From NCBI GenBank assembly GCA_046309815.1, contig JBKCOJ010000007.1, forward strand, positions 26,179 to 90,178: 64,000 nucleotides of DNA. The letters are read 5' to 3'. The first letter of the stretch is position 1. Each line of letters begins with the position of its first letter. Below the pieces are notes generated by a model, which was not told the origin of the DNA, made no database searches, and was given only the letters and a program-made list of their open reading frames with translations. The stretch is from Pseudomonadota bacterium. Its GTDB lineage: Bacteria; Pseudomonadota; Alphaproteobacteria; Paracaedibacterales; CAITNM01. A program made the position numbers and the translations under genes. Shown piece after piece: positions 1 to 28,110 of this stretch.

Positions 1-1123
1 TGGTGGCCTCGTCTGCTTGGTAAACGTTGAGTGTGTATTTTTTCAACAGCAGGCCATAGCCTAGATCGCTTTTGTGTTTTTCAAATTGTTCAACAGCTGT
101 TTGATTGGTACGATTTTTACGGAGTTCTTGAAGGGCTTGATAGGCCTTTTGACCGCTTTTAATACGAGTAATAGCCTGCGCTTCAAGTTCATTCATACCT
201 GGAATTTCAGTAGAAAACGAGCGCGTGGCGATTATTCCGAGCAGGTAAGGAATTTTAAGTTCAAAGGAATTTTGACGTTTTTGTTGATCGGGAATAGCAA
301 AAACCAAGAGATCAGCTGGTGCTTTTTCGGTATTCCAAACAGCCTCCATGGCGGCAATTTTCATTTTTTGATTTTGGGTGGCCGTGTATCCACTCTCGTC
401 TCCTAGAACAATCACACTTAAAGCGGAAGCAAGACCAAAGCTTACGGCGACGGTCATTGAGCGTTTGGCAAATTCCACGTAACGCTTTTGAAGAAGATAC
501 CAAGCACTAACCGCCATGACAAACACCGCACCGGTTACATAGCCAGCGCTTACGGTGTGGACAAATTTTGATTGAGCAACGGGATTGAAAAAAACATCGT
601 AAAAATTGGTAAGTTCCATGCGCAGCGTATCGACATTAAAGGTAGAACCGACAGGATTTTGCATCCATGCATTGGCGATAAGAATCCAAAGGGCAGAAAA
701 ATTCGTAGCCAACGCGAGGCCCCAAGTGACGCAAAGGTGCGCTTGTTTGGAAAGTTTTTTCCAACCAAAGAAGAAGAGACCAATCAGCGTTGCCTCCAAG
801 AAAAAGGCCATGAGTCCTTCGATGGCAAGGAGTGAGCCGAAAATATCGCCGACGTAATGACTGTAGTAGGCCCAATTGGTGCCGAATTGGAATTCGAGGG
901 TAATGCCGGTGGCAACACCCATAGCGAAATTGATGCCGAACAATAAACCCCAGAATTGCGTCATTTGTTTCCAGATAGGTTTTTGCGTCATCACGTAAAC
1001 GCTTTCCATGATGGCGAGGAGGAGACTGAGGCCTAGGGTGAGAGGCACGAAGAGAAAATGATAGGAAGCCGTGATGGCAAATTGAAGACGCGCGAGCTGG
1101 AGTGCCGTTAATGATTCAAACAT
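1..1123 (-). CDS. cydA: cytochrome bd ubiquinol oxidase subunit I, N-terminal part (gene runs off the left edge)
   Basis: Absent from the ORF track because there is no stop in the window. My reverse translation from ATG 1123-1121 gives MFESLTALQLARLQFAITASYHFLFVPLTLGLS...GITLEFQFGTNWAYYSHYVGDIFG...QNQKMKIAAMEAVW, and the frame stays open to position 1. These are classic CydA N-terminal and Q-loop motifs. Confidence 0.88.
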   Translation of the reverse strand, partial: MFESLTALQLARLQFAITASYHFLFVPLTLGLSLLLAIMESVYVMTQKPIWKQMTQFWGLLFGINFAMGVATGITLEFQFGTNWAYYSHYVGDIFGSLLAIEGLMAFFLEATLIGLFFFGWKKLSKQAHLCVTWGLALATNFSALWILIANAWMQNPVGSTFNVDTLRMELTNFYDVFFNPVAQSKFVHTVSAGYVTGAVFVMAVSAWYLLQKRYVEFAKRSMTVAVSFGLASALSVIVLGDESGYTATQNQKMKIAAMEAVWNTEKAPADLLVFAIPDQQKRQNSFELKIPYLLGIIATRSFSTEIPGMNELEAQAITRIKSGQKAYQALQELRKNRTNQTAVEQFEKHKSDLGYGLLLKKYTLNVYQADEAT

Positions 1124-1254
1124 TAGTTGGTGATGTGCTGAATGACTTGGTTAAAGCTTAGGTCAAAATGAGATTTACGTACATAGATAATTATCAACGT
1201 GAGGATGATGAGTTTAATAATAATAGCGATTTTGAGATCTTTGAATTTAGGCAT
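1123..1254 (-). CDS. small hydrophobic ORF (43 aa) translationally coupled to cydA
   Basis: Below the ORF-track size cutoff. It translates as MPKFKDLKIAIIIKLIILTLIIIYVRKSHFDLSFNQVIQHITN, with one predicted TM helix. Its TAA overlaps the cydA ATG in the sequence TAATG. Confidence 0.3.
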   Translation of the reverse strand: MPKFKDLKIAIIIKLIILTLIIIYVRKSHFDLSFNQVIQHITN

Positions 1255-1300
1255 GTTTTTAAAGCTTGTTAAGACATTTTAAGTCACTATATTACTTAAT

Positions 1301-4897: not shown

Positions 4898-5392
4898 TTG
4901 AATTACGATGGAAGTGTCTATAGTCAGCAACCTGGTAATTATTATCTGATGAAGGATCTTCCTCAACGAAGCGCAATGGCTTTTGATCAAAACATTACCG
5001 TTGATCAATATAATTCCAAAGAGTATCAATTGCATTTGCTGGGAGAAATTTTACGCCGTAAAGCCGTTGACCCTTATAGAAATAATTTAGTTGATGAATT
5101 TAGCCGCATTCCAGTGGCGACAGGAATCGTGATGGCGACACAGTTAATTCGAGGTGGACAAGACCCAGATATTTTAAATCGATTTTGGAAAAAAGACGAG
5201 GCATACCATTTATTCTCTAGCACTTATGCCGTAAGAAGAGATAATTTTAATGCACTAACGCTTAGATACCTAAATCGCTATGGCATTCCGGTTGATAATG
5301 CAGAGCTTATCAAAAAGACTATAAATATGCATGCAGCGGAAGTATTTGGGTATGAAGACTATGAAAGTGCCCTTGATTCACTTTTTGTATAA
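4898..5392 (+). CDS. hypothetical protein (body of a possibly frameshifted secreted-protein gene)
   Basis: 164-aa ORF starting at TTG. A 38-codon ORF encoding a signal peptide (4774..4890) ends 7 nt upstream in another frame. Confidence 0.5.
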   Translation: MNYDGSVYSQQPGNYYLMKDLPQRSAMAFDQNITVDQYNSKEYQLHLLGEILRRKAVDPYRNNLVDEFSRIPVATGIVMATQLIRGGQDPDILNRFWKKDEAYHLFSSTYAVRRDNFNALTLRYLNRYGIPVDNAELIKKTINMHAAEVFGYEDYESALDSLFV

Positions 5393-6133: not shown

Positions 6134-8245
6134 GTGTCAGCTGGTGAAATACTCTCAATCAAAATAAACACTTCGTTTGGAGATGGAGCTTTTGTTATTC
6201 AGCAGGCTGTTATTGAGGAAGCGCTATCAGAGCCATATCTTATTGATGTGTATGCATCCACGATGCTTTCTAGTTTTGATGGGGATGACCTGATTTATAC
6301 TAAAGCTGGTATTATTTTCGAAGTCTATGGCGGGAATGATCCCTCAGCTAAAAAGGAAGAGCGCTCTTACCAGGGTATAATCACCCATATGGAACACGTG
6401 CGAACGATTTTTGATGAAAAAAAACAAGTAACACATTTTTTTCATTTTCAAATACGGCCACTTTTTTGGATGTTAAAGCACAGCCGAGATCATCGAATTT
6501 TTCAAGAACAATCAGCGATTGATATTATTCAAACAATTTTTAGAGAAAATGGTTTGTCGGATTTTAAAATACAAGCATCTGGAGGCACGCAAGCACGAGA
6601 ATATTGCGTGCAGTATGGGGAAAGTCATTATGATTTCGTCTCACGATTACTAGAAGAAGAAGGCATTGGGTATTATTTTGTGCATGGTGATTCAGCGCAC
6701 ACGATGGTTCTGTTTGATAGTAATTCAAGTTTTGTGGGTATTGCGCAGGGAAGTTTGCCGTTTTTAAATATCGATACAGAGGGAGCTTTTGTGGATCATG
6801 TGGTTGCGTTTGGGAAAAAATCGCAAGTAGCTGCCAAGGCTTATAAAACTATTGATTACAACTACACGACACCTAATACGCAATTGTTAGGTAACAGCAC
6901 AGGAGCTGGATTTGGCGAGGAAATTTATGAATATCCCGGACTTTTTCAACAATCATCCGTTGGTGCCAAGCTTGCCGACCAGCGCATGGAAGAAATTGAA
7001 TGGTTTACAAAACGTGTGTATGGAAAATCATCCTGTGCAAGTTTAGCACCTGGAACAACGTTTACTCTGGCAGAACATCCTATTACACAGTACAACGCAG
7101 CTTATGCGGTTTCTTATGTAAAGCATGAACTTATTGCGCAGCCTACTGATGAGCACGATACCGATTCGTTTGCTTTAACATACACGAATTCGTTTGAAGG
7201 TTTTTTAAAAACAATTCCTTACAGGCCTTACCGAAAAACGCTGAAACCCCGAATTTATGGTTCACAAACAGCTTTTGTAACGGGAGCCGGCACAGAAGTT
7301 TATGGAGACGCGATGGCGCGCATCAAAGTTAAGTTTCATTGGGATTTGAAAAATCCAAACGATGAAACAAGTTCCCTGTGGGTGCGCGTAAGTCAATCAT
7401 TGAGTGGTGCAAGTTGGGGAGCACTTTACATGCCACGAATTGGTATGGAAGTTGTAGTATCTTTTATCGATGGTGATCCTGATAGACCATTGGTAACAGG
7501 ATGCGTGTACAATCAAGCCTTTATGCCACCCTACTCTCCTAAAGATTCACCTCATTATATGACCTTAAAAAGCAAGACTTTTGACGATGATACGGGAAGT
7601 AATGAATTGCGCTTTAGCGATGAAAAAGGCAAAGAAGAAATCTATTTGCACGGCCAATATGATATGAATACGGTTATTGAGCATAGCCGCACGGAAGATA
7701 TTAAAACGGGTGATGATTCTTTAACTCTTGATGCAGGTGACAAACTTATTCATCAAAAGGGTGATGGCACTATGTTTTTGACGCTTATCGATAGTGGAAA
7801 TCTCACCACTACTCTTAAAAAAGGAAATGTAGTCATTGACGTGAATGGTACTGTTCTTATTAAGGCCACCAAGGCAATTACGGTTACGACACCTGATAGC
7901 ATTACGATCAATGCCGGAAAAAATATCACGATGAAGGCTGGTGAGAATATTGTGATGAATGCTGGAAAAAGTATCCAAAAAAAGGCGGGACAAAATATTC
8001 AATCAACCGCTGGGAAAAGCATTCAAGAAAAAGCCAAAAAAATTCAAGAAAATGCGAGTGCCCAAATTCAACTGAAAACTGCCTCCATGCAGGCAAAAGC
8101 AGGAACATTGATTCAGCTAAAATCTGGAACAGCTTTTAAAGCAAATGCAGGTGCCATAATGGAGATTAAAAGTGGTGGCATGATTAAAGCGGAAGGCGCT
8201 GCTGTTGGTATGTTTAAGGGTGCTATTACGAAGCTTGGAGGCTAA
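6134..8245 (+). CDS. vgrG: type VI secretion system spike protein VgrG (TssI)
   Basis: 703 aa with a GTG start. It carries gp27/gp5-like motifs RIKVKFHWD and WVRVSQSLSGASWGALYMPRIGMEVVVSFIDGDPDRPLVTGCVYN. The C-terminus has beta-helix repeats AGKNITMKAGENIVMNAGKSIQKKAGQNIQ. Confidence 0.92.
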   Translation: MSAGEILSIKINTSFGDGAFVIQQAVIEEALSEPYLIDVYASTMLSSFDGDDLIYTKAGIIFEVYGGNDPSAKKEERSYQGIITHMEHVRTIFDEKKQVTHFFHFQIRPLFWMLKHSRDHRIFQEQSAIDIIQTIFRENGLSDFKIQASGGTQAREYCVQYGESHYDFVSRLLEEEGIGYYFVHGDSAHTMVLFDSNSSFVGIAQGSLPFLNIDTEGAFVDHVVAFGKKSQVAAKAYKTIDYNYTTPNTQLLGNSTGAGFGEEIYEYPGLFQQSSVGAKLADQRMEEIEWFTKRVYGKSSCASLAPGTTFTLAEHPITQYNAAYAVSYVKHELIAQPTDEHDTDSFALTYTNSFEGFLKTIPYRPYRKTLKPRIYGSQTAFVTGAGTEVYGDAMARIKVKFHWDLKNPNDETSSLWVRVSQSLSGASWGALYMPRIGMEVVVSFIDGDPDRPLVTGCVYNQAFMPPYSPKDSPHYMTLKSKTFDDDTGSNELRFSDEKGKEEIYLHGQYDMNTVIEHSRTEDIKTGDDSLTLDAGDKLIHQKGDGTMFLTLIDSGNLTTTLKKGNVVIDVNGTVLIKATKAITVTTPDSITINAGKNITMKAGENIVMNAGKSIQKKAGQNIQSTAGKSIQEKAKKIQENASAQIQLKTASMQAKAGTLIQLKSGTAFKANAGAIMEIKSGGMIKAEGAAVGMFKGAITKLGG

Positions 8246-8247
8246 TA

Positions 8248-9036
8248 ATGAGTATTGAAGCACAACAGCAAATAGAAGCAACAGAGGAGCCACACGCATC
8301 AAATTCAAATACCGAAGCTCCACCAGCTGAAAGTGCAGTTCCTAAAGAACAAGCTACGGATAAATCGCCTGTAAAAAAAAGTCCCATTAAAGAATTAGCA
8401 GAACAGGCAGCGAATCATAATGCCGGGGTGGCTCATGATGGTAAGCTAACCTATACACCCGGATATGAAAAAGATTTTCAAGAAAATGCAGAGATTCATG
8501 AAGAAGATGATGAGAGCGAAGAAGAAGAGGATGACGACGATGACCCCAAGGAAGATCCTCATGCCCCGGAACATGAAGTAAAAACACAAAAAATTGGATC
8601 AAAAACACTGCAAACGGAATTATCGAGAGGACTCAAGCAAGGCCTTACAAGCATCAAGACAAAAGATGGACATTACGAAATGCAGGCGCACTATGTAAAA
8701 GACAAGCTTGATGGATTAACGACGTATTACTTTGCTAATGGAAAAGTTGAGCGCGAAATTCATTTCAAGCATGGAAAAATGCATGGGTCGATGAAGGCTT
8801 TTCATGAGAATGGCCTACCCTCGATGGATGTGGAGTATGAAGATGGACTGATGCATGGCACCACCATCGTTTATGATGATTTTGGGCAAAAACAGGTAGA
8901 GTCGCATTACCAAAAAGGCAAATTGCATGGCGATACGATTGTATTTTCAAATGGAAAACCGTATCTGAAGAAGACATACCACGAAGGTAAAGAAACGCAC
9001 CAGGAATACGACGCCAGTGCAGCACATAGTTGTTAA
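8248..9036 (+). CDS. MORN-variant (YwqK-like) repeat protein with polyacidic N-terminal region
   Basis: It starts 2 nt after the vgrG stop. An acidic tract EEDDESEEEEDDDDDPKED is followed by about 23-aa repeats: YYFANGKVEREIHFKHGKMHGSMKAFHENGLPSMDVEYEDGLMHGTTIVYDDFGQKQVESHYQKGKLHG. Confidence 0.7.
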   Translation: MSIEAQQQIEATEEPHASNSNTEAPPAESAVPKEQATDKSPVKKSPIKELAEQAANHNAGVAHDGKLTYTPGYEKDFQENAEIHEEDDESEEEEDDDDDPKEDPHAPEHEVKTQKIGSKTLQTELSRGLKQGLTSIKTKDGHYEMQAHYVKDKLDGLTTYYFANGKVEREIHFKHGKMHGSMKAFHENGLPSMDVEYEDGLMHGTTIVYDDFGQKQVESHYQKGKLHGDTIVFSNGKPYLKKTYHEGKETHQEYDASAAHSC

Positions 9037-9084
9037 GGCGTGATTTGTTACTTATAATAAAACAAAAATAGTTGAGAAACCCCA

Positions 9085-9930
9085 ATGGCACTAAATTCCC
9101 TTATGGACTTATTAAAAATTAAGCAAGAAAAACGTGAAAAATTTAGGCATGAAGCAAAAAGCTTAACAAAATTTATCGTTGGTTTTTTGATTTTTAGCAC
9201 CTTGTTTTTTAAGCCGTTTAATATTCCCACCGGTTCAATGATCCCGAATTTATTGATTGGGGATTTTTTGGTAGTGAATAAATTTGCTTATGGATACACG
9301 CGCTACAGCTTGCCATTTGGAGCAGATGTAAACTGGTTCGAGGGACGAGTAATGCCTGAAAATCCGAAGATGGGTGACATTGGTGTTTTTCATAATCCTA
9401 AAGATGCAGAACCCTTTTCCATTCTTGGAATCAAACTTTGGGATTCAGCAAAAGATTACGTGAAGCGTATTATTGGATTACCGGGCGATCGAATCCAGAT
9501 GAAAAAAGGACGCTTATGGATTAATGGTAAAGAATGCCCCATTCAGCGTATTGAAGATTTTCCTTTGGAGCATAATGGAAAAACTATTATGGTGCCTCGC
9601 TACTTAGAAACGCTGCCAAATGGAGTACAGCATACGTTTATAAAATATGTCCCGTTTGGTGAAGCGAGAGCATTTTCGCATGACCCTGAGCATAGCACGG
9701 ATGATACGCCGGAGTATGTGGTACCGGAAGGACATTTCATGATTATTGGTGATAATCGTGATGGATCTCTTGATAGCCGTTATATGAATGATAAGGTAGC
9801 ATTTATTTCTTATGACCATTTAATGGGTAAAGTTGCTTTTGTGTTCTTTTCAACATCCGCTAAATGGTATGAAGTTTGGAAGTGGTTTACAAATGTCCGA
9901 TTAGAGCGGATTATGACGATCCCTAAGTAA
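9085..9930 (+). CDS. lepB: signal peptidase I
   Basis: S26 boxes TGSMIPNL, VKRIIGLPGDRI and GDNRDGSLDSRY. Confidence 0.9.
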   Translation: MALNSLMDLLKIKQEKREKFRHEAKSLTKFIVGFLIFSTLFFKPFNIPTGSMIPNLLIGDFLVVNKFAYGYTRYSLPFGADVNWFEGRVMPENPKMGDIGVFHNPKDAEPFSILGIKLWDSAKDYVKRIIGLPGDRIQMKKGRLWINGKECPIQRIEDFPLEHNGKTIMVPRYLETLPNGVQHTFIKYVPFGEARAFSHDPEHSTDDTPEYVVPEGHFMIIGDNRDGSLDSRYMNDKVAFISYDHLMGKVAFVFFSTSAKWYEVWKWFTNVRLERIMTIPK

Positions 9931-13454: not shown

Positions 13455-15557
13455 ATGATCAAGAGCTGTTTAAAGACCTCCTTATGGATATGTCTTAATT
13501 TATTCAGTATGCTTCATTCCAGTCAGAGCTTCTCATCGTCTGAAGAAGAACTATCTTGGGTGCGAACCAAAACTAGTGAGCTTTCAGCATTAGGATACAC
13601 GCAGGCAGCAGATACTTTAGCGCGACAGATTACCCAACAGCTTATTAACCCGGGCGTTGATAAAGTATTATGCGTTGATGAAATCGATCAGCATTTAAAA
13701 TTAGAACTGTATTACGCGTTCAATACGAAATGGGGGTCAGGAAGAACCAAAGATCATCGCATTGTTTATGATTTTTTGAGTAGGCTTGATAAGGCAGCGC
13801 CAAAAAATCGAGCACAAAGAGAATTTTTAAGCGTACTAACGATTCTTTCACTCGCATCTCAGGAGTATTTTTGGAATGAAAAATCAACCGTAATTGATTT
13901 GAGAAATAGAGCAAAAAGAGAGCTACGTTACGGACTTTTTAAAAAAGCAGGACATAAACTTAACGTAGCAAATTTAATATACTTAGAAGAACCTGACATC
14001 GAACGCCTTACGACCGCATGGATTAGTGAGGAATTACTTGGAAAATTGCAGGCTTTAATGGGGAATTTTAGAGACAAAAATTTAGGTGTAACCTTTTCAG
14101 CCATTTTGGAAGATTTAACAACAAAACTAAGTAAGATAGGAATAGCAAAACTTCCCGTTAAGCTGGATGCTAACACCCGCGAAAAATTTAGCCTGGGTGA
14201 ACAAATGGATTTCAGACCAGCATCTTCAGCTGGTGATGGGATGTGTGGGGAAAACAGTCTTTTCATTTCAACCGATGGTGCTTGTGGTGGCATTTCTGAA
14301 GGCAATGCGCGCTATAAAATAGAACGAGCTATTTTAGATCAAGCAGTGGATCCTATTGCGCATCGTCTATATCTACTAATAAGTCCATACATTAATAATT
14401 CCGAGAAATTTTTAGAGATCATTCAATCTCACCTTGCATCTACAGTTGACCCGAATGAAGTTGCTATTAGAGAAGCTATTGTTGGCTACATGCAACAAGA
14501 GATGGATTTAAACACCAGAAGGCAAGAAGGTGCAAGTCAGCAATTACGAGACCTTATCGCACGTGTCACTAAGCCCTTATCAATAATTTTGAATAGGTTT
14601 AAAGATGAGCTTGCCGAGTCAGAAAAATTAAGTGCCTGGACAGGCAATGGAGCAGATGCTTTTAAAGATGCGTCCTGTCGCGATTTTAATAGTCTGATTG
14701 AAGAAGTGTTAAATAGTGAAAGCATAAACCCGGGATTAGTCTCAGTCATAGATCCAATTCGTGCAGAGATTACAAGAATTATGAGCCAACCTGGCATTCA
14801 ACGTCCTAAAAAAATGGCTGAGCGAAATAAGCTGGTGGGAGCTGCGCTTCGCTCATACCTTGATGCTGATATTTTGCCAGGCACGATGAGCGATAAATCT
14901 TTTGATATTGATAAACTTTGTGAGCCAAGAAATGAACGGTATTCTTTCTTAACAAGTTTATGCGTTGCTGCGTGTCGATTGGTTAGGCCTGTTTTAGCCA
15001 CTGCTGCTTCTACGGAAACTTTAATTGAGAGTGAAATTGCTGCAATCAGGGATGAAAAGGATGAGGTGATTCGAGAAATTGAACATACCCTTTCGATGGA
15101 AAGATTAAAGATTTTAGGGCTTTTTAGCACCCTGCCTGCGCAATTTTCCCCTGACATATTAAAAGAAGATATGCATAAAAAAGCCTTAAGTCCTGGAGAA
15201 CTAGCTGGGTGGTTACCTTGCGATGCTATTTATACGCAGCTTTGGGCAATGGTAAACAACTTAAATATTTTTGTTTTTTCAAGTGGGGAAAGCCATGGAA
15301 GATCAGGTCTTGATTTAATGATCCGCCTTAAAGATGATCCTTACACTCAAATAGCAACGCACTATTCACATGGCGTCAGCGGTAAACATTTAGCAACGGT
15401 GATTTTAACCTCACCAACGGCTAAAAATGTTTATTTAAGTAAGTCACCCGCGCATTATGACAAGCTTCTTTCGCCAAATGACTTGGCTGCCATGGCGCGT
15501 GAAGCGCGTCATCTTGAGTGGATGAAAGATCCACAACGATATGCGTTATATCCGTAA
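13455..15557 (+). CDS. secreted OTU-like cysteine protease candidate, paralog 1 (putative deubiquitinase-like effector)
   Basis: 700 aa with signal peptide MIKSCLKTSLWICLNLFSMLHSS. Cys box AGDGMCGENSLFI (Cys264, nt 14244-14246), loop GELAGWLPCDAIYTQLWAMVNNLNIFVF, and His box PAHYDKLL (His667, nt 15453-15455). Confidence 0.55.
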   Translation: MIKSCLKTSLWICLNLFSMLHSSQSFSSSEEELSWVRTKTSELSALGYTQAADTLARQITQQLINPGVDKVLCVDEIDQHLKLELYYAFNTKWGSGRTKDHRIVYDFLSRLDKAAPKNRAQREFLSVLTILSLASQEYFWNEKSTVIDLRNRAKRELRYGLFKKAGHKLNVANLIYLEEPDIERLTTAWISEELLGKLQALMGNFRDKNLGVTFSAILEDLTTKLSKIGIAKLPVKLDANTREKFSLGEQMDFRPASSAGDGMCGENSLFISTDGACGGISEGNARYKIERAILDQAVDPIAHRLYLLISPYINNSEKFLEIIQSHLASTVDPNEVAIREAIVGYMQQEMDLNTRRQEGASQQLRDLIARVTKPLSIILNRFKDELAESEKLSAWTGNGADAFKDASCRDFNSLIEEVLNSESINPGLVSVIDPIRAEITRIMSQPGIQRPKKMAERNKLVGAALRSYLDADILPGTMSDKSFDIDKLCEPRNERYSFLTSLCVAACRLVRPVLATAASTETLIESEIAAIRDEKDEVIREIEHTLSMERLKILGLFSTLPAQFSPDILKEDMHKKALSPGELAGWLPCDAIYTQLWAMVNNLNIFVFSSGESHGRSGLDLMIRLKDDPYTQIATHYSHGVSGKHLATVILTSPTAKNVYLSKSPAHYDKLLSPNDLAAMAREARHLEWMKDPQRYALYP

Positions 15558-15632: not shown

Positions 15633-18143
15633 ATGGTATTTTGGGGATTTTTCTTACTTATCTATACATTTTTTTCATCTTTTGCATTTCCTGTAGAAAC
15701 TGAGGATCAACCTGGCGTAGAGCATATCATTTTTCGGCCAGAAATTCAGCATTTAATAAAAGAGCATATGCGATTTTGCACCCTTGGATATACAGAAGAA
15801 GCAGATACTTTAGCGCGAAAAAATACTCAAGACATTGGAACTTTATTTGCAGATATGGAACTTACAAAAGATGAGTTTAATGAATTGGTGGGAATTCATT
15901 TACGAACAGAGTTTTATTATGCGCTTAATTCAGTGTGGAATTGTGGAGCAACAAGGAATCCACGTCATATCTATGATTTTCTAAGTCAATTTGATAAAGG
16001 ATTTGCTAACACTCCAAAACGTAAAGAACATCTCACCACATTTACCATTCTTTCCCTAGCGGCTCATGAGTATTTTTGGAATGAACGATCCTCAACAGAA
16101 GATTTAAAAAAACATGTAGCACGTGAATTGCGTTATGGACTGTTTAGGGAATCTAGTCATGTATTAGACATGACATCATTGCTTTATTTGGATGAAGGAA
16201 ATATATCTCGTATTTCAAATGCTTTAATTGATGAATTATTTTTGCAGGCTCTATTTTTCTTCACGGAGAGTTATAGAGAGCAAACACTTGGGAGAACTTA
16301 TGCTCAGATATACAGACATTTGAACCAAGTAGTAGAAGAACAACTTAAATCTCCTCATCGACTTTCATTAGATATACTTCCAGAAAATTTACGCGACCAG
16401 GCTGGTTTATACCTTAAGTTACCCCTTTGCCTTGCTGATTCTTTTCCTGATGGTATGTGTGGACAGCACAGCCTTTTCATTCCAACAGATGGTCCTTTAG
16501 CCGCTTCGGAGAGTACTGGAATCGCTGAAGGAAACGGCAGATACAAAATGCTTCGTGCAATTTTAGACAATACTGCGGATGTTGATGCACGACGAATTTA
16601 TCTCATGATTAGTCGTCATATGGATGGTGTGGGTTTTTCTTCTTTAATAGAGAAAATGGTTGCGGAACTGGGAGAAAGAGATGTGGAGCAAGCGAGTGCT
16701 TTAAGAGAAAGAATGATACAGTACAGTCAATTTAAAAGTAATAAACAAGCAGAAAATGAAGAACATATTAATCAATCAAAACGAGAGATGCTAACTGCTG
16801 TGATAGCATTACCTGCTTTAGAAGACGCCTTGAAGGATTTTCATGCAAAAATTAGTGACCCAGAGCAGTTAAAAGTATTGATCCTAGATAAAAACTTTCG
16901 CGATATTATTGATGCAATCTTAAGCTTGAGAAAAGCAAGACCAACAATAGATGAGCGTTTGGCAGGGATAGACGTCGAGATTGAAAGGCTAAGCACTGAA
17001 ATAGCTGCCGAAAAAACAGCCGCTGTTGAGAAAGTAAGAGCAGAGCGAACGCGATTACAAGAAGAAATTAAAAAATTAAGAACCGAATCTCAAGAGTATC
17101 AACAACAGCATCAAGCCGAAGTAAATGAGCTTGCTGTATTGGTATCTCGGCGTCAGCAGCTTCTTAATTTGATACAAAGAAAGCAAGTTCAAGGAAACTC
17201 TGAACAACTAAAGCAAAATGTTGAAAAGCAATTTAAGGATTTTGAGGAAAAATACCCAGAATTTGCCCAATTTATGAATGAAAAACAAATAGCCATTGCT
17301 AAAGTACAACAAGAATATAAAGAACTTAGGGAAGATACTTCCCTTTATGAGCAAAAGTTAGCTGAGAAATATACGTTGATTTGCGAAACGATAAAAGAGT
17401 TTTTAAACCCAAGCATGTTACCTGGGAAAAGCACTGATGCATTTTTATTTGATGAACTTTGCGAGAGTGGATACTCAATATTTATTACCGAGGTTTGCCA
17501 GCCCGTTGCAGAACTTTTACAGCAACCAGAAACGGCAAGATCATGCGGAAAACTTTGGGATGATTTTCAAGATCGTAAGGATATTTTTAATCATCAGGTA
17601 GAGCAGGATTTAATAGCCCAAAGATTGGAAATTGTTAGTTCTTTAACTGAATTTCCTGAAGAATTATCGCCTGCATCATTGGGGGCAGAAATGCAAGAAT
17701 TGGCTTTACGTGGAGGAGAATTGGGAGGATGGTTGCCTTGTGATTCAGCGTATGTGCAATTATGGGCAGTTTTACACAATTTAAATGTTTTTGTTATATC
17801 TGATCAGGAACATTTCGGTAATCAGTTGATTAGACCAAAGCTTAATTTAATGTCGCGTTTTGCCGATCAGCCATATGCACAACAGACAATTTTGTATCCT
17901 CCAGAAAAAACAGGCTTTCATCTTGCAATGGTTATTTTAACGTCAGAACGAGCAAAAAGTGTTGTTTTGCGTAGGCAAAATAATCATTATGAAAAGCTAT
18001 ATGATCCAACTGATCATATCGCCACTTCTATGCAGCAGCGGCATCTTAAGTGGGTCGACCTGGGAGAAAAAATGTATGAGTCTTATCCGAAGAAAGCTGT
18101 AGCTATAACGAACACACAAAGCAACCCAGCGGAAGAGGCTTAA
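15633..18143 (+). CDS. secreted OTU-like cysteine protease candidate, paralog 2, with coiled-coil insertion
   Basis: 836 aa with signal peptide MVFWGFFLLIYTFFSSFAFP. Cys box FPDGMCGQHSLFI (Cys276, nt 16458-16460), GELGGWLPCDSAYVQLWAVLHNLNVFVI, and His box NNHYEKLY (His785). Colinear with 13455..15557. A heptad-rich segment spans about nt 16950-17360. Confidence 0.55.
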   Translation: MVFWGFFLLIYTFFSSFAFPVETEDQPGVEHIIFRPEIQHLIKEHMRFCTLGYTEEADTLARKNTQDIGTLFADMELTKDEFNELVGIHLRTEFYYALNSVWNCGATRNPRHIYDFLSQFDKGFANTPKRKEHLTTFTILSLAAHEYFWNERSSTEDLKKHVARELRYGLFRESSHVLDMTSLLYLDEGNISRISNALIDELFLQALFFFTESYREQTLGRTYAQIYRHLNQVVEEQLKSPHRLSLDILPENLRDQAGLYLKLPLCLADSFPDGMCGQHSLFIPTDGPLAASESTGIAEGNGRYKMLRAILDNTADVDARRIYLMISRHMDGVGFSSLIEKMVAELGERDVEQASALRERMIQYSQFKSNKQAENEEHINQSKREMLTAVIALPALEDALKDFHAKISDPEQLKVLILDKNFRDIIDAILSLRKARPTIDERLAGIDVEIERLSTEIAAEKTAAVEKVRAERTRLQEEIKKLRTESQEYQQQHQAEVNELAVLVSRRQQLLNLIQRKQVQGNSEQLKQNVEKQFKDFEEKYPEFAQFMNEKQIAIAKVQQEYKELREDTSLYEQKLAEKYTLICETIKEFLNPSMLPGKSTDAFLFDELCESGYSIFITEVCQPVAELLQQPETARSCGKLWDDFQDRKDIFNHQVEQDLIAQRLEIVSSLTEFPEELSPASLGAEMQELALRGGELGGWLPCDSAYVQLWAVLHNLNVFVISDQEHFGNQLIRPKLNLMSRFADQPYAQQTILYPPEKTGFHLAMVILTSERAKSVVLRRQNNHYEKLYDPTDHIATSMQQRHLKWVDLGEKMYESYPKKAVAITNTQSNPAEEA

Positions 18144-18144
18144 T

Positions 18145-19293
18145 TTAGGATTCCTCAGCCATCAGTTCATGCAGTTGTTGTTCGGTGATGCCTAAAATGT
18201 CACAAATATCTTCGGTTTTCATTTCTTTATTTTGCATGCGTGTAATTGCTGCGCGTTTTGTTCTTTTTTCACCAACTTTTTCGCCTTCTTCACGTTCCAC
18301 CGCCAGAGTTGCCGCATAAAGATCTCGATTCGCTAAATTCTCTCTGTATTCACCCGTCACTCTCGGACTCCATTGCTGTAAATCTAAACGGTTTAAGGCG
18401 TTGTATATGGCAACAGGCATTATTCCTGTACCTTCGTTATACCATTCTGCTACTTTTGCTGATGTGTACTCCTGCGCATGATGTAAGACACTCACCCACC
18501 AATCCGCCATCGTAAAATCTGCCTGTGGCGGAAACAACGATTTTGTTCTTTCCGCACGTGGTAACTCCACTTGGATCATCTGCAAATAATCAATTTGCTG
18601 TCCCGATTTATCCGTTAAAACATAGTGCTTAATAAATTGCTCTGTTGGTAATGGGTGTTCTTTTACTCTATCCACTAAAGTATCTGGCACCTCTGCCTTA
18701 AGACCACGAATGCGATTCGTGTCATAATCTAAAATTTGTAAGGCAATTACTGGTTTTAGGTTAATATACCAATTCTCAGCACTGAGTTGCCTTTCTGATA
18801 ATTGGCGCGCATAAATTCCACACGCATAAAATAAAGCTCGCTCATCAAACATCACATGACGCTGCGCCTGCATTTCGATAATGTAATGAACCCCGCTTTG
18901 CGATGTCACGTGCAAATCCATGAAGGTCTGTTTCTCTCCCGGGTGCCTAAGCGCTGGGATAGCAACAGGGGCTTCCTCAACTTCCACCACTGGGTCGCCC
19001 CTGAAGGGAGGAATAAAGCAATTTAAGAAAGAAATCACAATTGAAGGGTCACTTCCCATCGATAAAGATAACATATGCTTAAAAGCGGTATCGGTGGTAG
19101 CAATCGCGTAGTGATAGTCGCCAAGCTGATGCAACAATGCTTCTTTGACAACTTCATCGGAAGATTGTTCGATGGTGCGTTTGCGTGATAGTCCTTCTGG
19201 ATCTTTTGATTCCATCGCAAAGGAAGAACCAAGAGCAACACAAATGCCAAAAATAAAAAACTTCTGTAAAAATTGTTGGTTTTTTTTAACCAT
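18145..19293 (-). CDS. Rpn-family / PD-(D/E)XK nuclease family putative transposase
   Basis: FKHMLS...FMDLHVTSQSGVHYIIEMQAQ (D...E.Q nuclease core) with a C-terminal TEDICDILGITEQQLHELM helix-turn-helix-like tail. I prefer the ATG at 19293, which has a GAGGAG SD, over the ORF-track start at 19332. Confidence 0.68.
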   Translation of the reverse strand: MVKKNQQFLQKFFIFGICVALGSSFAMESKDPEGLSRKRTIEQSSDEVVKEALLHQLGDYHYAIATTDTAFKHMLSLSMGSDPSIVISFLNCFIPPFRGDPVVEVEEAPVAIPALRHPGEKQTFMDLHVTSQSGVHYIIEMQAQRHVMFDERALFYACGIYARQLSERQLSAENWYINLKPVIALQILDYDTNRIRGLKAEVPDTLVDRVKEHPLPTEQFIKHYVLTDKSGQQIDYLQMIQVELPRAERTKSLFPPQADFTMADWWVSVLHHAQEYTSAKVAEWYNEGTGIMPVAIYNALNRLDLQQWSPRVTGEYRENLANRDLYAATLAVEREEGEKVGEKRTKRAAITRMQNKEMKTEDICDILGITEQQLHELMAEES

Positions 19294-19453
19294 CGCGTTG
19301 TTCTCCTCGCCAGCTCTCCCCTGTCTTCCCATTACTACATTTCTCTTGTTCTTTCAAGAAAAAATGAGAAAAGCTAGGCATCTACATACTTTAGCTATTG
19401 TGCAGAAAAGCTATTCGACTTACCATTAAATGAGGTATTAAAAATCCAAATGC

Positions 19454-21262
19454 ATGGCAAAAGTCGACGACTCATTAGTTCGCTATTACCAAGAAGAGCT
19501 TGATTACTTACGTTCAAGCGGAAAAGAGTTTGCCAAACAATATCCAAAAATTGCGCGACGCCTCGAATTAACGGATGGAGAGTCCCCAGATCCACAGGTG
19601 GAAAGGCTGCTTGAATCATTTGCTTTTCTAACGGGACGTTTGAGTAGAGCGATTGATGATCGATTTCCGCAAACAGCGCAGGCTTTATTGAGTGTTTTGT
19701 ATCCTCATCTGGTTAATCCTATTCCAGCGATGGCAATTGCAAAACTACATGTTGATCATAGTCAAATTCCAGCAGATAAAGGGTATTATCTTGAGAAAGG
19801 CACGAAGCTTTTAGCGCATTCAGTTGAGGATGTGCAGTGCCAATTTCAAACAGTTTATAACACCCATCTTTGGCCTTTAAATATTCAAAAAGTTGAGCTG
19901 GTAGCAAGAGATGCTTTCACTTTTGAACACTCACCTCAACATCATTGGCTTTTAAAAATGACGATTCATTCAAAAAATTCGCCAATAAAAGCGATGAATG
20001 TGGATAATTTATTAGTGCATATTTCGTGTAATTGGATAAAAGCAAATTTGTTTTATGAAGCGTTATTTAGTGAATGCGCTGGCAAACTGTATGTTGCAAC
20101 GGATGAAAAAATAACGGCTGTAGAAGCGTGTACGCTGGAGCCTGTTGGCTATAAGCGTGATGAATTACCCCTTCCTGTTCCTGATTATAGTTTGCATCAT
20201 TATGCGCTGTTTCAAGAGTACTTCCATTTCAGTGAAAAATTTTTATTCTTTCGTATTGCAGGATTGCAAAAAGCCATTGCAGCGCTGGCCCCGCAGCAGG
20301 AAATGCATCTTTTAATTCCTTTAAAAAATGCCATGGTTTTTCAGCAAAAAGGAATTGATGCATCGGTATTTTCGTTGAACTGCTTGCCAGTTGTGAACTT
20401 ATTTGAGCGGCCTTCTGATCCGATACGTATTCATCATCGCCATTTACGTTATCGTTTAATCCCTGACATACGCCGAGAACGCACGAGCGAAGTGTACAGC
20501 GTTCAGCATGTGGAAGGCATTGAAGAAAAGACGCAAAAAGTCATTGAGTATAAGCCGTATTATGGTCTTGAAACGCGTGATAATGAAGGGTTCTTTTGGA
20601 CTGCTCAACGTGTGCCAGCGGGTCTTAGAGGACTGCCAGGAACTGATGTGTATTTATCCTTTATCAACCGAAATTTTAATCCTATTAAGGCGAAAGACGT
20701 TGTTGTAACGGCAAAAATTTTGTGCACCAATCGGTATCTGGCAGATCAATTAGCTGCTGGCTCGCTGCTGCAACCAGAGGGCAAAGCGCCGGTTTTAAAG
20801 ATTACGCTATTGAATAAGCCCACTTCGCAAAATTACACGATGCTGGATGGAGAGAGTTTGTGGATGTTGATATCGCAGCTTTCGACCAATTATTTAGGCG
20901 TGCTTAATGTTAATCAAGGCTTAAATTCTTTGAAAGAATTTTTGTATCTTTTTGCGAGTCGTTACCCCGATAAACCTGCGTCTTCTATTGAAGATTTGAA
21001 AAATATGACCATTAGCCAGATAACGAGGCGCTTTGGTGCGGATGCGTGGCGTGGTTTTGTGCAAGGCTATAAGGTGCAGCTTGAGATGGAAAAAACGAAT
21101 CATGAAGGCGGCAGTAATTTGATTTTGGGAACGATTTTGAATGCATATTTTAGCTCAACAGTCAGTTGGAATAGCTTTGTCGAGTGCAGTTTGAATGATG
21201 GCAAAAATAATGGAGAATGGATGCAATGGCAGCCCCAGCCCGGCGTGCAAACGCAGTTGTAA
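19454..21262 (+). CDS. tssF: type VI secretion system baseplate subunit TssF
   Basis: The N-terminus YYQEELDYLRSSGKEFAKQYPKIARRLEL...DPQVERLLESFAFLTGRL is the TssF (ImpG/VasA) signature. Confidence 0.9.
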   Translation: MAKVDDSLVRYYQEELDYLRSSGKEFAKQYPKIARRLELTDGESPDPQVERLLESFAFLTGRLSRAIDDRFPQTAQALLSVLYPHLVNPIPAMAIAKLHVDHSQIPADKGYYLEKGTKLLAHSVEDVQCQFQTVYNTHLWPLNIQKVELVARDAFTFEHSPQHHWLLKMTIHSKNSPIKAMNVDNLLVHISCNWIKANLFYEALFSECAGKLYVATDEKITAVEACTLEPVGYKRDELPLPVPDYSLHHYALFQEYFHFSEKFLFFRIAGLQKAIAALAPQQEMHLLIPLKNAMVFQQKGIDASVFSLNCLPVVNLFERPSDPIRIHHRHLRYRLIPDIRRERTSEVYSVQHVEGIEEKTQKVIEYKPYYGLETRDNEGFFWTAQRVPAGLRGLPGTDVYLSFINRNFNPIKAKDVVVTAKILCTNRYLADQLAAGSLLQPEGKAPVLKITLLNKPTSQNYTMLDGESLWMLISQLSTNYLGVLNVNQGLNSLKEFLYLFASRYPDKPASSIEDLKNMTISQITRRFGADAWRGFVQGYKVQLEMEKTNHEGGSNLILGTILNAYFSSTVSWNSFVECSLNDGKNNGEWMQWQPQPGVQTQL

Positions 21263-22230
21263 AGCAATCTCTTCCCGAACAGGTTTTAGAAACGCCTGAA
21301 GCGTTTGATCTGGATCAGCTGATTTATATTATCGAATCGTTGCGCACAAATGTGGCGCCGCTTGGCGAAGCTACCAATCCTCAAAAAGAGGCCGTGCGGC
21401 TTCGAAGCCCTATTACCATGCACCAAGAAGGTACTGAAGTTAATCGTTTGGAGGTGAAAAATACACTTTCAAAAGTGCCCGAGATTTATATTAATACGCT
21501 GAGCCTTGCGGGTGTAAATGGCCCGTTACCGACGCCTTATACGGAAAAGCTGCTTGAGCAAATGAAGCAAAAGGATTTTGCGGGCGCGCATTTTTTGGAT
21601 ATTTTTCATCACCGTTTGGCATCGATGTGGCATCGCTTGCGCAAGCGTACCTACCCTCACCTTTTCAAAAGTCCGCCAGCGCAAACACCGATTGGGAAGC
21701 TGCAAGAAAATTTGAGTGGTTTTGCGCAGCAAGGAGACGTTGATCATACGTTGTTTTTCGATCATTTTTGGAAGCGATCGAGATCGCTTGCAGGCCTGTT
21801 ACAAATGGTGAAAACATTTTTTGGCGTGGAAGCATCGATTAGCCCATTTGAGGGGGCATGGCGAAAGGTGGATGCGGCGGAGGGAAGCCGGATTGGTAAG
21901 CGAGGACAGTTTCAGGTTTTGGGCAAAGATGCCATTTTGGGTCTGCGGTGCTGGGATCAGGCGGCAGGATTTACGATTGAGGTGGCTCCTCTTGATTGGG
22001 AGGCATTGCAGGGATTTTTACCGTTTAAAAGCAATGCGCTGGGTGGAGGAAATTTTTATAAGCTGAAACAGCTGGTGGTGAGTTATATGGGAACATTGCC
22101 GAGGGTGTTTTTAAAGCTTTCGCTGAAAGAGGGTGAAAATCGTGGGGCGAGTTTAGACCACAACCATGGGCTTGGCTGGAACACATGGCTGAGTGGTGCG
22201 ACGGCGGAGAGTGTGCGGGTAAGGGTTTAA
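21217..22230 (+). CDS. tssG: type VI secretion system baseplate subunit TssG
   Basis: GVNGPLPTPYTEKLLEQ...FLDIFHHRLASMWHR matches the TssG (ImpH/VasB) core. It overlaps the tssF 3' end. Confidence 0.85.
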   Translation: MDAMAAPARRANAVVKQSLPEQVLETPEAFDLDQLIYIIESLRTNVAPLGEATNPQKEAVRLRSPITMHQEGTEVNRLEVKNTLSKVPEIYINTLSLAGVNGPLPTPYTEKLLEQMKQKDFAGAHFLDIFHHRLASMWHRLRKRTYPHLFKSPPAQTPIGKLQENLSGFAQQGDVDHTLFFDHFWKRSRSLAGLLQMVKTFFGVEASISPFEGAWRKVDAAEGSRIGKRGQFQVLGKDAILGLRCWDQAAGFTIEVAPLDWEALQGFLPFKSNALGGGNFYKLKQLVVSYMGTLPRVFLKLSLKEGENRGASLDHNHGLGWNTWLSGATAESVRVRV

Positions 22231-22241
22231 GAGAGGCTTAT

Positions 22242-23439
22242 TTAATATTCTCTTGAAAAATCAACTAATGAGCCATCTGCTTTAAACACGTACCTCAAAT
22301 CCCCAGAACTAGCCGTGCTATAAATAGATTTTTTTGTTGTAAATATTGACCATTTTGGGTTTTTATCTATAGCCATGAACTCAAAAATAGGTGAAAGCTG
22401 TCCTTTTGCATATTCAATATCTTTAAAATCAGGAATACCAATTGTTACTGAATGTAAATCCTCAAGAAGAAAAACATCATTTTCGGTATCTCTTAAGCAA
22501 TCAATTAAAATAAACTCCTGAAAGAGTGCTAAATCAGGATGCCCGTTATATCTATAACCTGCGCTAATTGCGACATGGTGAGGGCCCTTCTTACTTAACC
22601 ATAATCCATCATTTGAACCATCTTTATCTTTTGCTCCGTGATGACTAAAGACAGACAATTGAACATTTTGAAGAGGTTGTTGATGAGGAGCTGCCGTTAA
22701 ATTTTTCCTGCAATCTATCAAATACCTCCTTGTAGCGATAGCTGACGCATCCCCCATAATTAAAATGTTTTTGCCATTTAAAGAAAGTCTTACGATAGCA
22801 CTATTTGTGTTTTCATCATTCTCATAGGAGGTGCCTACACCCGCGTTAGCACATAAAATTGATAAAAATGTATGAGGATTATGAAGGCTTTCCGCATCTA
22901 AAAACCCATCTTTTAATAAAAGATCTATCGCATAGTGGGTAATAAAATGGACAATTCTTGGGGGTAACCGATTTAAGACTTCTTCGTATAGTTCTTTGCC
23001 CTCTTCTTTCCACAAATAACTGTGTTGATTATCGCCTAATATAAATTGATTAGTGCGTAAAAATAATGTTGTATTGAGATTAAATAATTTAGCAAGGTGA
23101 TGTTAAAAGATTAAGATGATCTTTATCACTGTGAGAAATAATAACCGTGATTTTTCCTGCATAATCTGGTAAATCTGCATGCACTTCACCTATTCCGAGA
23201 GCACAAGCAATACGGTTAATAATTTCATTAGGAGTGTCTGAAGATGTACCAAAATCTACAACTACATAGGATCCATTCTTTTTATTTTTTAGAAGGGTAT
23301 TACCTCCTTGCCCCACATTTTCAGCAATCACTTCGAAATTAGCACCATTGTTATAGCAATGATGAAAGTCAGCAGCGTCAAAACCTGATACCGCAAAAAT
23401 AACCTGACAAAAAGCAATAATAACTAAAAAGATAAGCAT
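22242..23439 (-). pseudogene. ComEC/Rec2-like metallo-beta-lactamase-fold hydrolase with signal peptide, split into two ORFs by a frameshift
   Basis: ORF 23089..23439 carries VGQGGNTLL...VVVDFG...IISHSDKDHLNLL. The ORF 22242..23015 frame is open up to 23102 and carries NSAIVRLSLNGKNILIMGDAS, SVFSHHGAKD, ISAGYRYNGHPD and STASSGDLRYVF. Together these follow the colinear ComEC C-terminal MBL motif order. The two frames overlap only in 23089-23102. Confidence 0.6.
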
Positions 23440-24827
23440 TTATCCCTCAATATGGCTTTCTGGTAGTTTTCGTAATTATTCACGTGTTGCTCTAACGCAA
23501 GGAAATTTTCTCTTCGATCAATACTCAATCCAGCAGCTTCAAGAAGGTTTCCGGCATAAATAAAACCTCTTTCTGCGGCGCGTGCTGCTATTGCTTCTAT
23601 TTTATTCTGAATGTTTGTTATAGGCTCTAAATTATTTATTTTTTTTAAAATTTCTATTTGTTTTTCATACCCTTTATCAATTCCACCTTCTATATCAATT
23701 CCGCCTTCTGTTGCTTTTTTATAGTGCTCTAGTGCTTGTTTAAGAGCGTGTACCCTTTTTTCCGGATCAATTTGTGAATATGCAAAATATTCAGTAAAGT
23801 CACCCGCGTCATAGGAAATTTCGGGGAATTCATTGGTTGTATTTTCAGCTAGAGAAGCTAGATAATATTCATTAGCTCTAACAAGATCACGAGGTGTAGA
23901 AATACCATATCTATGATATTGCGCAAGCTTCCACAAAGCATATGCTTTTATGCGCAAATGTAGTGAGTTACTAATAAAGTCATCCGCTTTTGATTGATCT
24001 TGTGTAAGAATCATAAAACCATGCTCTATCAATCCTCGACGAGATCCTTGAGCAACCGCCATTTGAAATAAATTAGTTGCTAAATCAGATCTTCCTAAAA
24101 ACTTATAGATGTATCCAGCATTTAAAAGCGTCGTGAGTTGTCTTCGCGCAAGATGAACTGTAGCAGAACTAGCATTAGCTACTTCTGCTTCTAAGTTACT
24201 GTAAAAGCTATTCTGTTTAGCTGTGTCATTTAAAATTTCTTTAGCCTTTTCTACAACCATACCGTTTTCTGTTGCAAAAGGTATAGAAAGCACTTGAGAT
24301 AAATGCTGTTCTGTAGAAATTGTTTCAAGATTTACGTTTTTGTAGCTCCCCAAAATAAGAATATTTTTTGCAAGTTTAAACCCGAAGTCTGCTGATACTA
24401 AAATCAAAGCTCTCTCAAAAAATGACAATTGATTAAAATTCGTCTTAAGGGTATTGGCAAAAAGATGGTGAGGAAAAAACAACGCTCCTATGAATTCTCC
24501 AACATTAGGCCTATCCCCTAGCATTAACTTTGATTGAAGAACTTCATGAGGCTGTGATCTCATGTATCGGCAAATATCTTCTTCCACCATTGTTGATAGT
24601 GTACCATTCTTTTTGAATTTTTTTATAAGCTTTGCTTTTTGTTCAAAAAGAGTTACTAAATTTCTCGTTTTATTAAGTTCTACAGCAAGACTATCCGTGC
24701 CTGCAGCGATACCAACATTTGATATAAGAAAAAATGAAAACCAAAATAAGACTAACTTACTGGGTTGCTCCTGGCTCAACATAATCAAATCCTGTTGCTT
24801 TATAAGCGGTATCAGGAACCCAACCAT
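23424..24827 (-). CDS. Sel1/TPR-like repeat protein with N-terminal signal/anchor
   Basis: 467 aa. The likely start is MLSQEQPSKLVLFWFSFFLISNVGIAAG at 24782. It has a Sel1-like unit AYALWKLAQYHRYGISTPRDLVRANEYYLASLAE. It overlaps both the downstream and upstream ORFs, which suggests an operon. Confidence 0.6.
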   Translation of the reverse strand: MVGFLIPLIKQQDLIMLSQEQPSKLVLFWFSFFLISNVGIAAGTDSLAVELNKTRNLVTLFEQKAKLIKKFKKNGTLSTMVEEDICRYMRSQPHEVLQSKLMLGDRPNVGEFIGALFFPHHLFANTLKTNFNQLSFFERALILVSADFGFKLAKNILILGSYKNVNLETISTEQHLSQVLSIPFATENGMVVEKAKEILNDTAKQNSFYSNLEAEVANASSATVHLARRQLTTLLNAGYIYKFLGRSDLATNLFQMAVAQGSRRGLIEHGFMILTQDQSKADDFISNSLHLRIKAYALWKLAQYHRYGISTPRDLVRANEYYLASLAENTTNEFPEISYDAGDFTEYFAYSQIDPEKRVHALKQALEHYKKATEGGIDIEGGIDKGYEKQIEILKKINNLEPITNIQNKIEAIAARAAERGFIYAGNLLEAAGLSIDRRENFLALEQHVNNYENYQKAILRDKCLSF

Positions 24828-27472: not shown

Positions 27473-27871
27473 CTAAACGCGTCGTTGAGCGCTTTTATCT
27501 TTTTTCAAAGCTAATGAGGCAAGGTACGCAGAGCGGCTGAGATGGGCTTTTTTCGCACTTTTATCGATGAGCTGCAAAAGATCTTCCGGAAAACAGACAT
27601 TGACCCGCACCGTTTTTGAGGAAGGCACCTCCACCAAAAAAGCGACGGCGTCTTGGTTATCGGCATCTTGCATGATGACATCTAGAGAGCTTGACTCAGG
27701 AATAGATTCTCCCATTTCCTTCATGAGTTCGACGTGGCCGATTAGGGCTTCTTTCGTGAAGGATTTTGCTTCGTCTAATGTTTTTCCGACGGTGATACAG
27801 CCTGGGAAATCTGGAAAGCTTACGCCATAGTCGGAAGCGGATGTTTTATGGATTAACGCGATGTAGTTCAT
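27473..27871 (-). CDS. HicB-family antitoxin-like protein (HicB fold plus C-terminal ribbon-helix-helix)
   Basis: The start MNYIALIHKTSASDYGVSFPDFPGCITVGKTLDEA at ATG 27871 is preceded by AGGAGA. The C-terminus LIDKSAKKAHLSRSAYLASLAL is CopG/RHH-like. The longer track ORF (to 28057) has no support. Confidence 0.62.
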   Translation of the reverse strand: MNYIALIHKTSASDYGVSFPDFPGCITVGKTLDEAKSFTKEALIGHVELMKEMGESIPESSSLDVIMQDADNQDAVAFLVEVPSSKTVRVNVCFPEDLLQLIDKSAKKAHLSRSAYLASLALKKDKSAQRRV

Positions 27872-28110
27872 GATGCTTCTCCTATGCGGGGTATTATAGT
27901 CTATACCCATAAAATAATGATCATTATTTTTCGAGATTGCCGCCCCCTTTGTGGGTTCGCAATGACGCAGAAAAGCATAGGAATTGGCGCAAACTTTTGC
28001 CGCCTGCGCCTTAGGAGAGAGTGTAGTTTCGTGTTCAAAGAAGTGCATCGTTTTCAAAGTTACGCTATGATCGCCTGTAACGATACCTATAAAAAATTAT
28101 AACTCAATTT

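Follow-up and report, generated by a model that had tools for sequence, protein, structure and literature searches.

A MORN_2 protein encoded directly behind vgrG in Paracaedibacteraceae as a candidate passenger of the T6SS spike

What is the role of a MORN-repeat protein whose gene starts only two nucleotides behind the stop codon of a vgrG gene? The question is raised by a 64-kb stretch of bacterial DNA, in the following called the window, in which a gene on the plus strand (8248-9036, ATG start) encodes such a protein of 262 amino acids. In the databases the product is labelled 'YwqK family antitoxin', and the pairing of ywqK with vgrG has already been published for Holosporales and diplonemid endosymbionts, where the gene was interpreted as coding for an immunity protein or antitoxin (PMC8163844; bioRxiv 10.1101/719211). 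As the T6SS is viewed as the key host-interaction machine of the Holosporales endosymbionts, with no secreted molecule known and with an activity that has never been demonstrated experimentally (PMC11909080), the identity of a protein which is so closely tied to the spike gene is of some consequence.

The partner of the MORN gene is a canonical VgrG. The upstream ORF (6134-8245, plus strand), which encodes this T6SS spike protein of 703 amino acids, matches TIGR03361 with an E value of 3.7e-148, and Phage_GPD, Phage_base_V, Gp5_trimer_C and, weakly, DUF2345 are found in addition. The protein consists of the gp27/gp5 (+ OB) domains and beta-helix repeats. A C-terminal toxin domain was sought in it with Pfam and NCBIfam and none was found, so that it is not an 'evolved' VgrG. 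At the junction of the two genes (8237-8250, plus strand) the Shine-Dalgarno sequence GGAGG (8237-8241) lies within the final vgrG codons, 6 nt 5' of the ATG of the MORN gene, and is followed by the stop codon TAA (8243-8245), two nucleotides, and the ATG (8248-8250). The start 2 nt past the vgrG stop, which had been pointed out in the initial annotation, can thus be read directly from the sequence. The same tight junction is kept in the orthologous loci, with aggagg or aggaaa, the stop codon, 2-3 nt, and ATG, and the two genes adjoin each other in every orthologous locus whose upstream sequence is included. Thirteen orthologues of the MORN protein with 46-68% identity were found. Judged by these orthologues and by a conserved MORN domain and a tight junction in eight out of eight compared loci, the ORF 8248-9036 is a real gene and no chance ORF. 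A signal-peptide-like hydrophobic stretch was looked for by eye at the N-terminus of the protein and none was visible. The next gene is lepB, encoding signal peptidase I (9085-9930, TIGR02227, E=4.6e-37), and no toxin gene accompanies the MORN gene, which agrees with the initial annotation. A promoter-like site which possibly belongs to lepB itself is seen at 9030-9058.

The orthologues come from metagenome-assembled genomes (MAGs) that carry the labels Ca. Finniella, Ca. Odyssella or Alphaproteobacteria. These belong to the Paracaedibacteraceae (Holosporales), whose members live as obligate endosymbionts of protists (PMC11909080). Their loci were located by an alignment-based scan of genome contigs, a scan with the single protein having given no match, and they show a strict synteny consisting of LOG (minus strand), vgrG, the MORN gene, lepB, a patatin gene (minus strand), tsaD, an MFS gene, one or two genes for large unknown proteins, tssF, and tssG. 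The latter two, coding for T6SS baseplate proteins, are located at 19454-22230 on the plus strand of the window (Pfam T6SS_TssF E=1.1e-162, T6SS_TssG E=7.4e-60) and show that a T6SS is encoded, its genes being dispersed among housekeeping genes, of which the remainder of the window is made up. When identities to the window proteins were computed across eight orthologous loci, the MORN domain (67-77%) tracked VgrG (69-77%), somewhat under the housekeeping proteins LepB (84-90%) and TsaD (78-84%). This parallel would fit a co-evolution of MORN domain and VgrG and was counted in favour of a passenger of the spike. A gene for a PAAR-like or DUF4280 protein was found neither in the window, over its 64 kb, nor at a distance of up to 10 kb in any of 16 orthologous loci (L001-L016), so the complete module of vgrG, MORN gene and PAAR-like gene is absent here.

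Other parts of the window gave a number of separate observations. Two tandem paralogues on the plus strand (13455-15557 and 15633-18143) encode proteins of 700 and 836 amino acids which are 33-38% identical, have signal-peptide-like N-termini, and share the motifs DGMCG[EQ][NH]SLFI..TDG and, at the C-terminus, HY[DE]KL. Both motifs are reminiscent of the loops that bear Cys and His in OTU-type cysteine proteases; an OTU-like identity of the two proteins was dropped, no Pfam or PDB match being found in its support. In related genomes the corresponding orthologues are flanked by the MFS gene and tssF, so the large paralogues may be candidate host-directed effectors. An ORF of the PD-(D/E)XK transposase family (18145-19332, minus strand) separates them from tssF and is not present at the corresponding position in three relatives (L001, L003, L006). 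Downstream of tssG two Sel1-repeat proteins and a HicB-like antitoxin are encoded (23424-24827, 26495-27361, 27473-28057, all on the minus strand); Sel1-repeat proteins are typical among the host-interaction factors of amoeba symbionts. A conserved ORF upstream of vgrG (4898-5392, plus strand), flanked by a DUF6314 gene and the LOG gene, encodes 164 amino acids here and 205-221 in relatives, with no Pfam match. At the start of the window (1-1300) about 1.3 kb are free of long ORFs. Only short ORFs, overlapping and on both strands, occur there, Rfam and tRNA searches gave no match, and the region is perhaps the remnant of a gene or a long intergenic stretch. A search for RNA genes in the window found none.

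The domain content of the protein behind VgrG is simple. Pfam MORN_2 (PF07661) is matched with 39.9 bits, the gathering cut-off being 29.6 (E=2.4e-10), and from Pfam and the predicted hairpins together MORN_2 repeats are the sole domain type. An AlphaFold2 model, as had been proposed in the initial annotation, was built on the 13 orthologues and yielded a confident MORN array behind a disordered N-terminal part (residues 1-95, pLDDT ~30). Thirteen beta-strands between residues 110 and 254, all with a pLDDT above 93, form about six MORN hairpins, the array extending over residues 108-255 (8569-9012, plus strand, pLDDT 93-97). The presence of MORN repeats had been recognized correctly before; their count of four to five and their start at nt 8710 have to be changed to about six repeats from nt ~8569. 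The model has the beta-hairpin array and the periodic G-x-x-x-G/Y motifs of the MORN-repeat fold (CL0251), its best Foldseek matches in the PDB are MORN1, radial-spoke MORN proteins, junctophilin, and the N-domain of SET7/9, and the MORN domain of SET7/9 is matched by sequence, too (E=2.3e-5). MORN arrays are known as generic scaffolds for protein binding. A peculiarity of the present one is its wealth of histidines, which account for 14 of the 158 residues of the C-terminal region aa 105-262 (nt 8569-9033), or 8.9%, versus a mean of 3.0% in 28 other VgrG-linked MORN proteins. Sensing of pH or binding of metals are conceivable possibilities for such a histidine-rich array.

In front of the array lies an extension of 104 amino acids (8248-8559, plus strand) with a net charge of -23, low pLDDT (~30), and low identity. 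The disordered polyacidic tract which had been noted at nt ~8500-8545 was found again within this region as EEDDESEEEEDDDDD (aa 85-99, nt 8500-8544, plus strand). Its length differs among orthologues, and a search with TRF for a DNA tandem repeat, from which it might have originated by slippage, gave no match in the tract. While the MORN domain is 67-77% identical between orthologues, the N-terminal ~100 residues reach only 25-49%, with conserved islets formed by an IK[DE][LF]AK helix (aa 46-56) and by PGYE (aa 71-74). The strongly negative charge is nevertheless retained in this region of the orthologues (-14 to -36). The acidic extension is restricted to the clade of the window, the proteins of Finniella inopinata, Azospirillum, Odyssella, and of the metagenomic survey described below having none; the remaining VgrG-linked MORN proteins comprise 164-240 amino acids with at most 4-8 D/E per 20 residues, apart from two exceptions (L047, L052) with a weaker acidic patch at the N-terminus. 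At the other end, a flexible tail with the residues SAAHSC and the stop codon (9013-9036, plus strand) was delineated in the alignment of the orthologues. Its last residue, a cysteine, is kept in 10 of the 13 orthologues of the alignment and nowhere outside this clade, to which the terminal motif A-[AQ]-[HQ]-S-C is also restricted, and its lipidation is a conceivable possibility. As far as it can be judged from the proteins and their neighbourhoods, the acidic extension, the histidine-rich array, the C-terminal cysteine, and the absence of a nearby PAAR-like gene suggest a lineage-specific target. These clade-specific traits are what is new here, the MORN protein family and the pairing of ywqK with vgrG in Holosporales being already known.

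A MORN protein directly after vgrG had been regarded in the initial annotation as unusual and unlike the known partners of VgrG. This view has to be abandoned. A metagenome scan with an alignment of VgrG yielded 80 loci, 73 of which had a same-strand ORF within 300 nt downstream, and this first gene encoded a MORN_2 protein in 36 of the 73, followed at a distance by DUF4280 (8), DUF4123 and FHA (4 each), and DUF2169 (3). MORN_2 is thus the commonest first downstream gene in this VgrG subfamily, and TseF of Pseudomonas aeruginosa is a protein of just this kind. Of 62 second genes, 15 encoded DUF4280 and two a PAAR motif. The survey of vgrG neighbourhoods which had been suggested at the outset showed linkage to vgrG in the orthologous loci as well as in part of the metagenomic ones. 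When the family of the window was compared by hhalign with 28 VgrG-linked MORN_2 proteins, the probability was 99.6% (E=1.1e-23, 132 columns); generic MORN_2 proteins of other phyla recovered in the same scan (L017-L021) do not adjoin a VgrG.

Among more distant homologues of the window VgrG (35-40% identity) the order of vgrG, a MORN_2 gene, and a DUF4280 gene was seen in Ca. Finniella inopinata (221-aa MORN_2 protein, 2-nt gaps throughout), in Azospirillum (197-aa MORN_2 protein), and in a Holosporaceae MAG (192-aa MORN protein, with an LRR protein behind DUF4280). It also occurs on plasmid pBPHY01 of Paraburkholderia phymatum and on a Cupriavidus megaplasmid, in agreement with the literature (PMC8356804). 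In Ca. Odyssella acanthamoebae and a Paracaedibacteraceae MAG the MORN gene directly follows vgrG, while it is absent after the homologous vgrG in O. thessalonicensis and in one Holosporales MAG. The gene of O. acanthamoebae (L023:7274-7969) encodes 231 amino acids and is embedded in a synteny of OmpA-like, vgrG, and RND efflux genes; in the matching synteny of O. thessalonicensis a 300-nt AT-rich gap takes its place (L110:6034-6336), an apparent recent loss. A set of VgrG-linked MORN proteins of 180 amino acids, with the order clpV-x-vgrG-MORN and 58-65% GC, is consistent with H3-like loci. From all this, the combination of vgrG and MORN_2, with or without a PAAR-like gene, emerges as a common module across Proteobacteria.

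Two of the metagenomic loci carry the association one step further. Directly after vgrG each of them has a single ORF (L030:6036-7154 and L031:6154-7125) in which a MORN_2 array is nested in a DUF4280 PAAR-like domain. About 30 residues correspond to the N-terminal strand of DUF4280, comparable to MGGQQVVNGAPCMCSFG in the unfused protein of L029, and are followed by the MORN array and then by the rest of DUF4280. With no more than 33% identity between the two proteins, the insertion must be old and cannot be an artefact of read-through, frameshift, or assembly. The PAAR-like protein belongs to the ejected spike, so the MORN array leaves the cell in these lineages. Protein searches found no DUF4280 fusions among the MORN homologues, and no description of a MORN array inside DUF4280 was found in the literature consulted. 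Together with the wide spread of the module, these rare insertions favour a binding over a toxic role for MORN proteins of this type at the tip of the spike.

The best studied protein of this type is encoded in the H3-T6SS cluster of P. aeruginosa, which contains vgrG3 (PA2373), tseF (PA2374, 178 amino acids with MORN motifs), and PA2375 (PMC5379069, PMC7376260), the last one, downstream of tseF, encoding a DUF4280 PAAR-like protein (PMC7376260). For its release to the supernatant TseF largely requires clpV3, hsiB3-C3, and hcp3 (Lin 2017, PMC5379069), although its secretion is reduced and not abolished in H3-T6SS mutants (PMC5379069). GST-TseF retained VgrG3 and VgrG1b. TseF also binds to the PQS of outer-membrane vesicles and, for the uptake of iron, engages FptA and OprF (PMC5379069). 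The gene of the window likewise lies directly downstream of vgrG on the same strand, with a conserved gap of 2 nt. A DUF4280 gene does not come next at this locus, and in the survey (15/62) this feature was frequent and not universal. PQS being specific for Pseudomonas, the target of TseF cannot be transferred to the organism of the window. Among the best-ranked matches of a literature search, TseF or MORN was mentioned nowhere together with Holosporales or endosymbionts. TagA/B-5 and TagB-5 of the Burkholderia T6SS-5, which had been considered as MORN proteins, are pentapeptide-repeat proteins according to a review and were discarded.

Taken together, the MORN protein of the window is probably a cargo of the spike tip of the TseF type, which is co-translated with VgrG and acts by binding. 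The present analysis itself provides the structure of the gene, its homology and synteny, and the architecture of the insertions, and secretion and VgrG binding are taken over from TseF only. Of the three roles offered by the initial annotation, cargo, adaptor or orphan immunity protein, a cargo or spike-associated role is thus preferred, and immunity is disfavoured by the missing toxin, the conserved locus, and the precedent of TseF. In such a mechanism the protein would be produced together with VgrG by translational coupling, as indicated in the sequence by the 2-nt gap and the internal Shine-Dalgarno motif. The six MORN hairpins (aa ~108-255), forming a rigid array, would then dock on the tip formed by VgrG and a PAAR-like protein, which is suggested by the pull-downs of TseF with VgrG3 and by the natural MORN-in-PAAR-like proteins. 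Upon contraction of the sheath it would be expelled with the spike, as the T6SS-dependent release of TseF leads one to expect. More speculatively, once outside the bacterium it might act by binding and not by catalysis, the target in a protist host being most likely a host membrane or protein, and the acidic disordered N-terminus and the histidine-rich array might be the target-specific parts.

The most serious competitor is a non-secreted adaptor or assembly factor, the MORN array of which would help the PAAR-like tip or another cargo onto VgrG as a chaperone or positioning device and stay inside the cell, as the adaptors Tap-1/Tec, Eag and DUF2169 do. This is possible, if rather unlikely. 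In many genomes the MORN gene occupies exactly the typical adaptor position between vgrG and the PAAR-like gene, it is highly conserved and tracks VgrG, and the retention of the pair in reduced endosymbiont genomes fits a part of the machine (bioRxiv 10.1101/719211; PMC8163844). A non-secreted assembly role also predicts an identical synteny, and the secretion data for TseF are partial. TseF, however, occurs in supernatants and on outer-membrane vesicles and has an extracellular function, and in the two nested proteins (L030, L031), where one covalent chain comprises both the array and the PAAR-like domain, the MORN part is bound to be ejected. At the window locus, moreover, the next gene is lepB and not a cargo gene, and some related VgrGs do without a MORN gene at all. 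The established families DUF4123 (Tap-1/Tec), DUF1795 (Eag), and DUF2169 are likewise encoded directly after vgrG and possibly serve in loading of the spike, but their folds are unrelated to MORN and none of them is matched by the window protein in Pfam.

The spike passenger may also be thought of in more specific terms. In this clade of Paracaedibacteraceae a TseF-like passenger could have been re-tooled to serve the Holosporales T6SS as its main host-directed effector, tethering or remodelling a membrane or an organelle of the host; this extended version is doubtful and is put forward tentatively. At an acidic pH, as in a vacuole, the histidine-rich array would become more positively charged, the polyacidic head would mask the array or bind host cations or basic proteins, and the terminal cysteine could, once in the host, receive a lipid or form a cross-link. 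More generally, MORN arrays beside or inside the PAAR-like tip, as in L030 and L031, could represent a widespread class of T6SS cargo forming a 'target-binding tip', and not toxins. The TseF-like re-reading itself offers a concrete first candidate for what the T6SS of Holosporales delivers, and it corrects an 'antitoxin' annotation which has spread through papers and databases.

That annotation corresponds to the assumption of a YwqK-type immunity protein, either orphan or guarding against a toxin delivered by this T6SS. YwqK of Bacillus subtilis is the immunity protein of the LXG toxin YwqJ and the source of the database name, and immunity genes are often linked to vgrG, a point which speaks for such a role. 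The window protein shares the MORN_2 domain and the COG2849 annotation with YwqK, and it is solely by this common domain that it received the name; the protein is most likely not an antitoxin. A role in immunity has been the reading of the Holosporales literature (PMC8163844; bioRxiv 10.1101/719211), and is nonetheless very improbable. The ywqK gene of B. subtilis lies directly behind the toxin gene in a polymorphic toxin locus, whereas at the window locus there is no toxin, the VgrG partner is plain, and the neighbours LOG, lepB, patatin, and tsaD stand in conserved synteny. The locus is strictly conserved and not polymorphic, its MORN domain being 67-77% identical throughout the clade, and the wider module of vgrG, MORN gene, and PAAR-like gene contains no conserved toxin. 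No NCBIfam immunity model is matched, generic MORN_2 proteins outside the family (L017-L021) are not linked to VgrG, and TseF, the member of the family that has been characterised, is secreted as a substrate. The combination of an evolved VgrG toxin with YwqK immunity, as found in the literature, was rejected for the window since its VgrG carries no toxin domain. A housekeeping or otherwise unrelated cytoplasmic protein, linked to vgrG by inherited gene order and with no part in the T6SS, is hardly credible: the T6SS genes of the lineage are indeed dispersed among housekeeping genes such as lepB and tsaD, and the next gene may own a promoter-like site (9030-9058), but the adjacency recurs in Alpha-, Beta-, and Gammaproteobacteria amid otherwise different neighbourhoods, and the MORN insertion into the PAAR-like protein (L030, L031) also stands against it.

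The favoured spike passenger can be compared with three known systems. With the eukaryotic MORN proteins MORN1, the junctophilins, RSP1/10, and SET7/9 it has the elongated array of beta-hairpins in common (Foldseek E=4.5e-6 to 1e-3), yet the identity is merely 13-18%, MORN_2 is a differing bacterial variant, and, in contrast to these proteins, that of the window has no membrane anchor or catalytic domain. IglG of Francisella is a DUF4280 protein with an N-terminal extension (PMC5014421) and, like the nested proteins of L030 and L031, illustrates that DUF4280 tips carry extra modules, but the extension of IglG is not MORN and the window protein lacks DUF4280. The closest parallel is TseF (PA2374), to which the window protein is likened by shared domain, synteny, and published description. 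Both are small MORN_2 proteins with no enzymatic domain, encoded directly behind vgrG genes of one and the same broad subfamily, and the TseF family has been published as defined by MORN_2 motifs and by synteny with vgrG and a PAAR-type gene (PMC5379069). The window protein differs from TseF by an extra acidic N-terminus of ~100 residues, a histidine-rich array, and a conserved C-terminal cysteine, and its locus by the absence of an adjoining PAAR-like gene. As a protist endosymbiont, unlike Pseudomonas, has no reason to deal with PQS, another target is to be expected. The full order of vgrG, MORN gene, and DUF4280 gene, as in the TseF locus, is found in relatives of the window clade, namely in Finniella inopinata and the Holosporaceae MAG.
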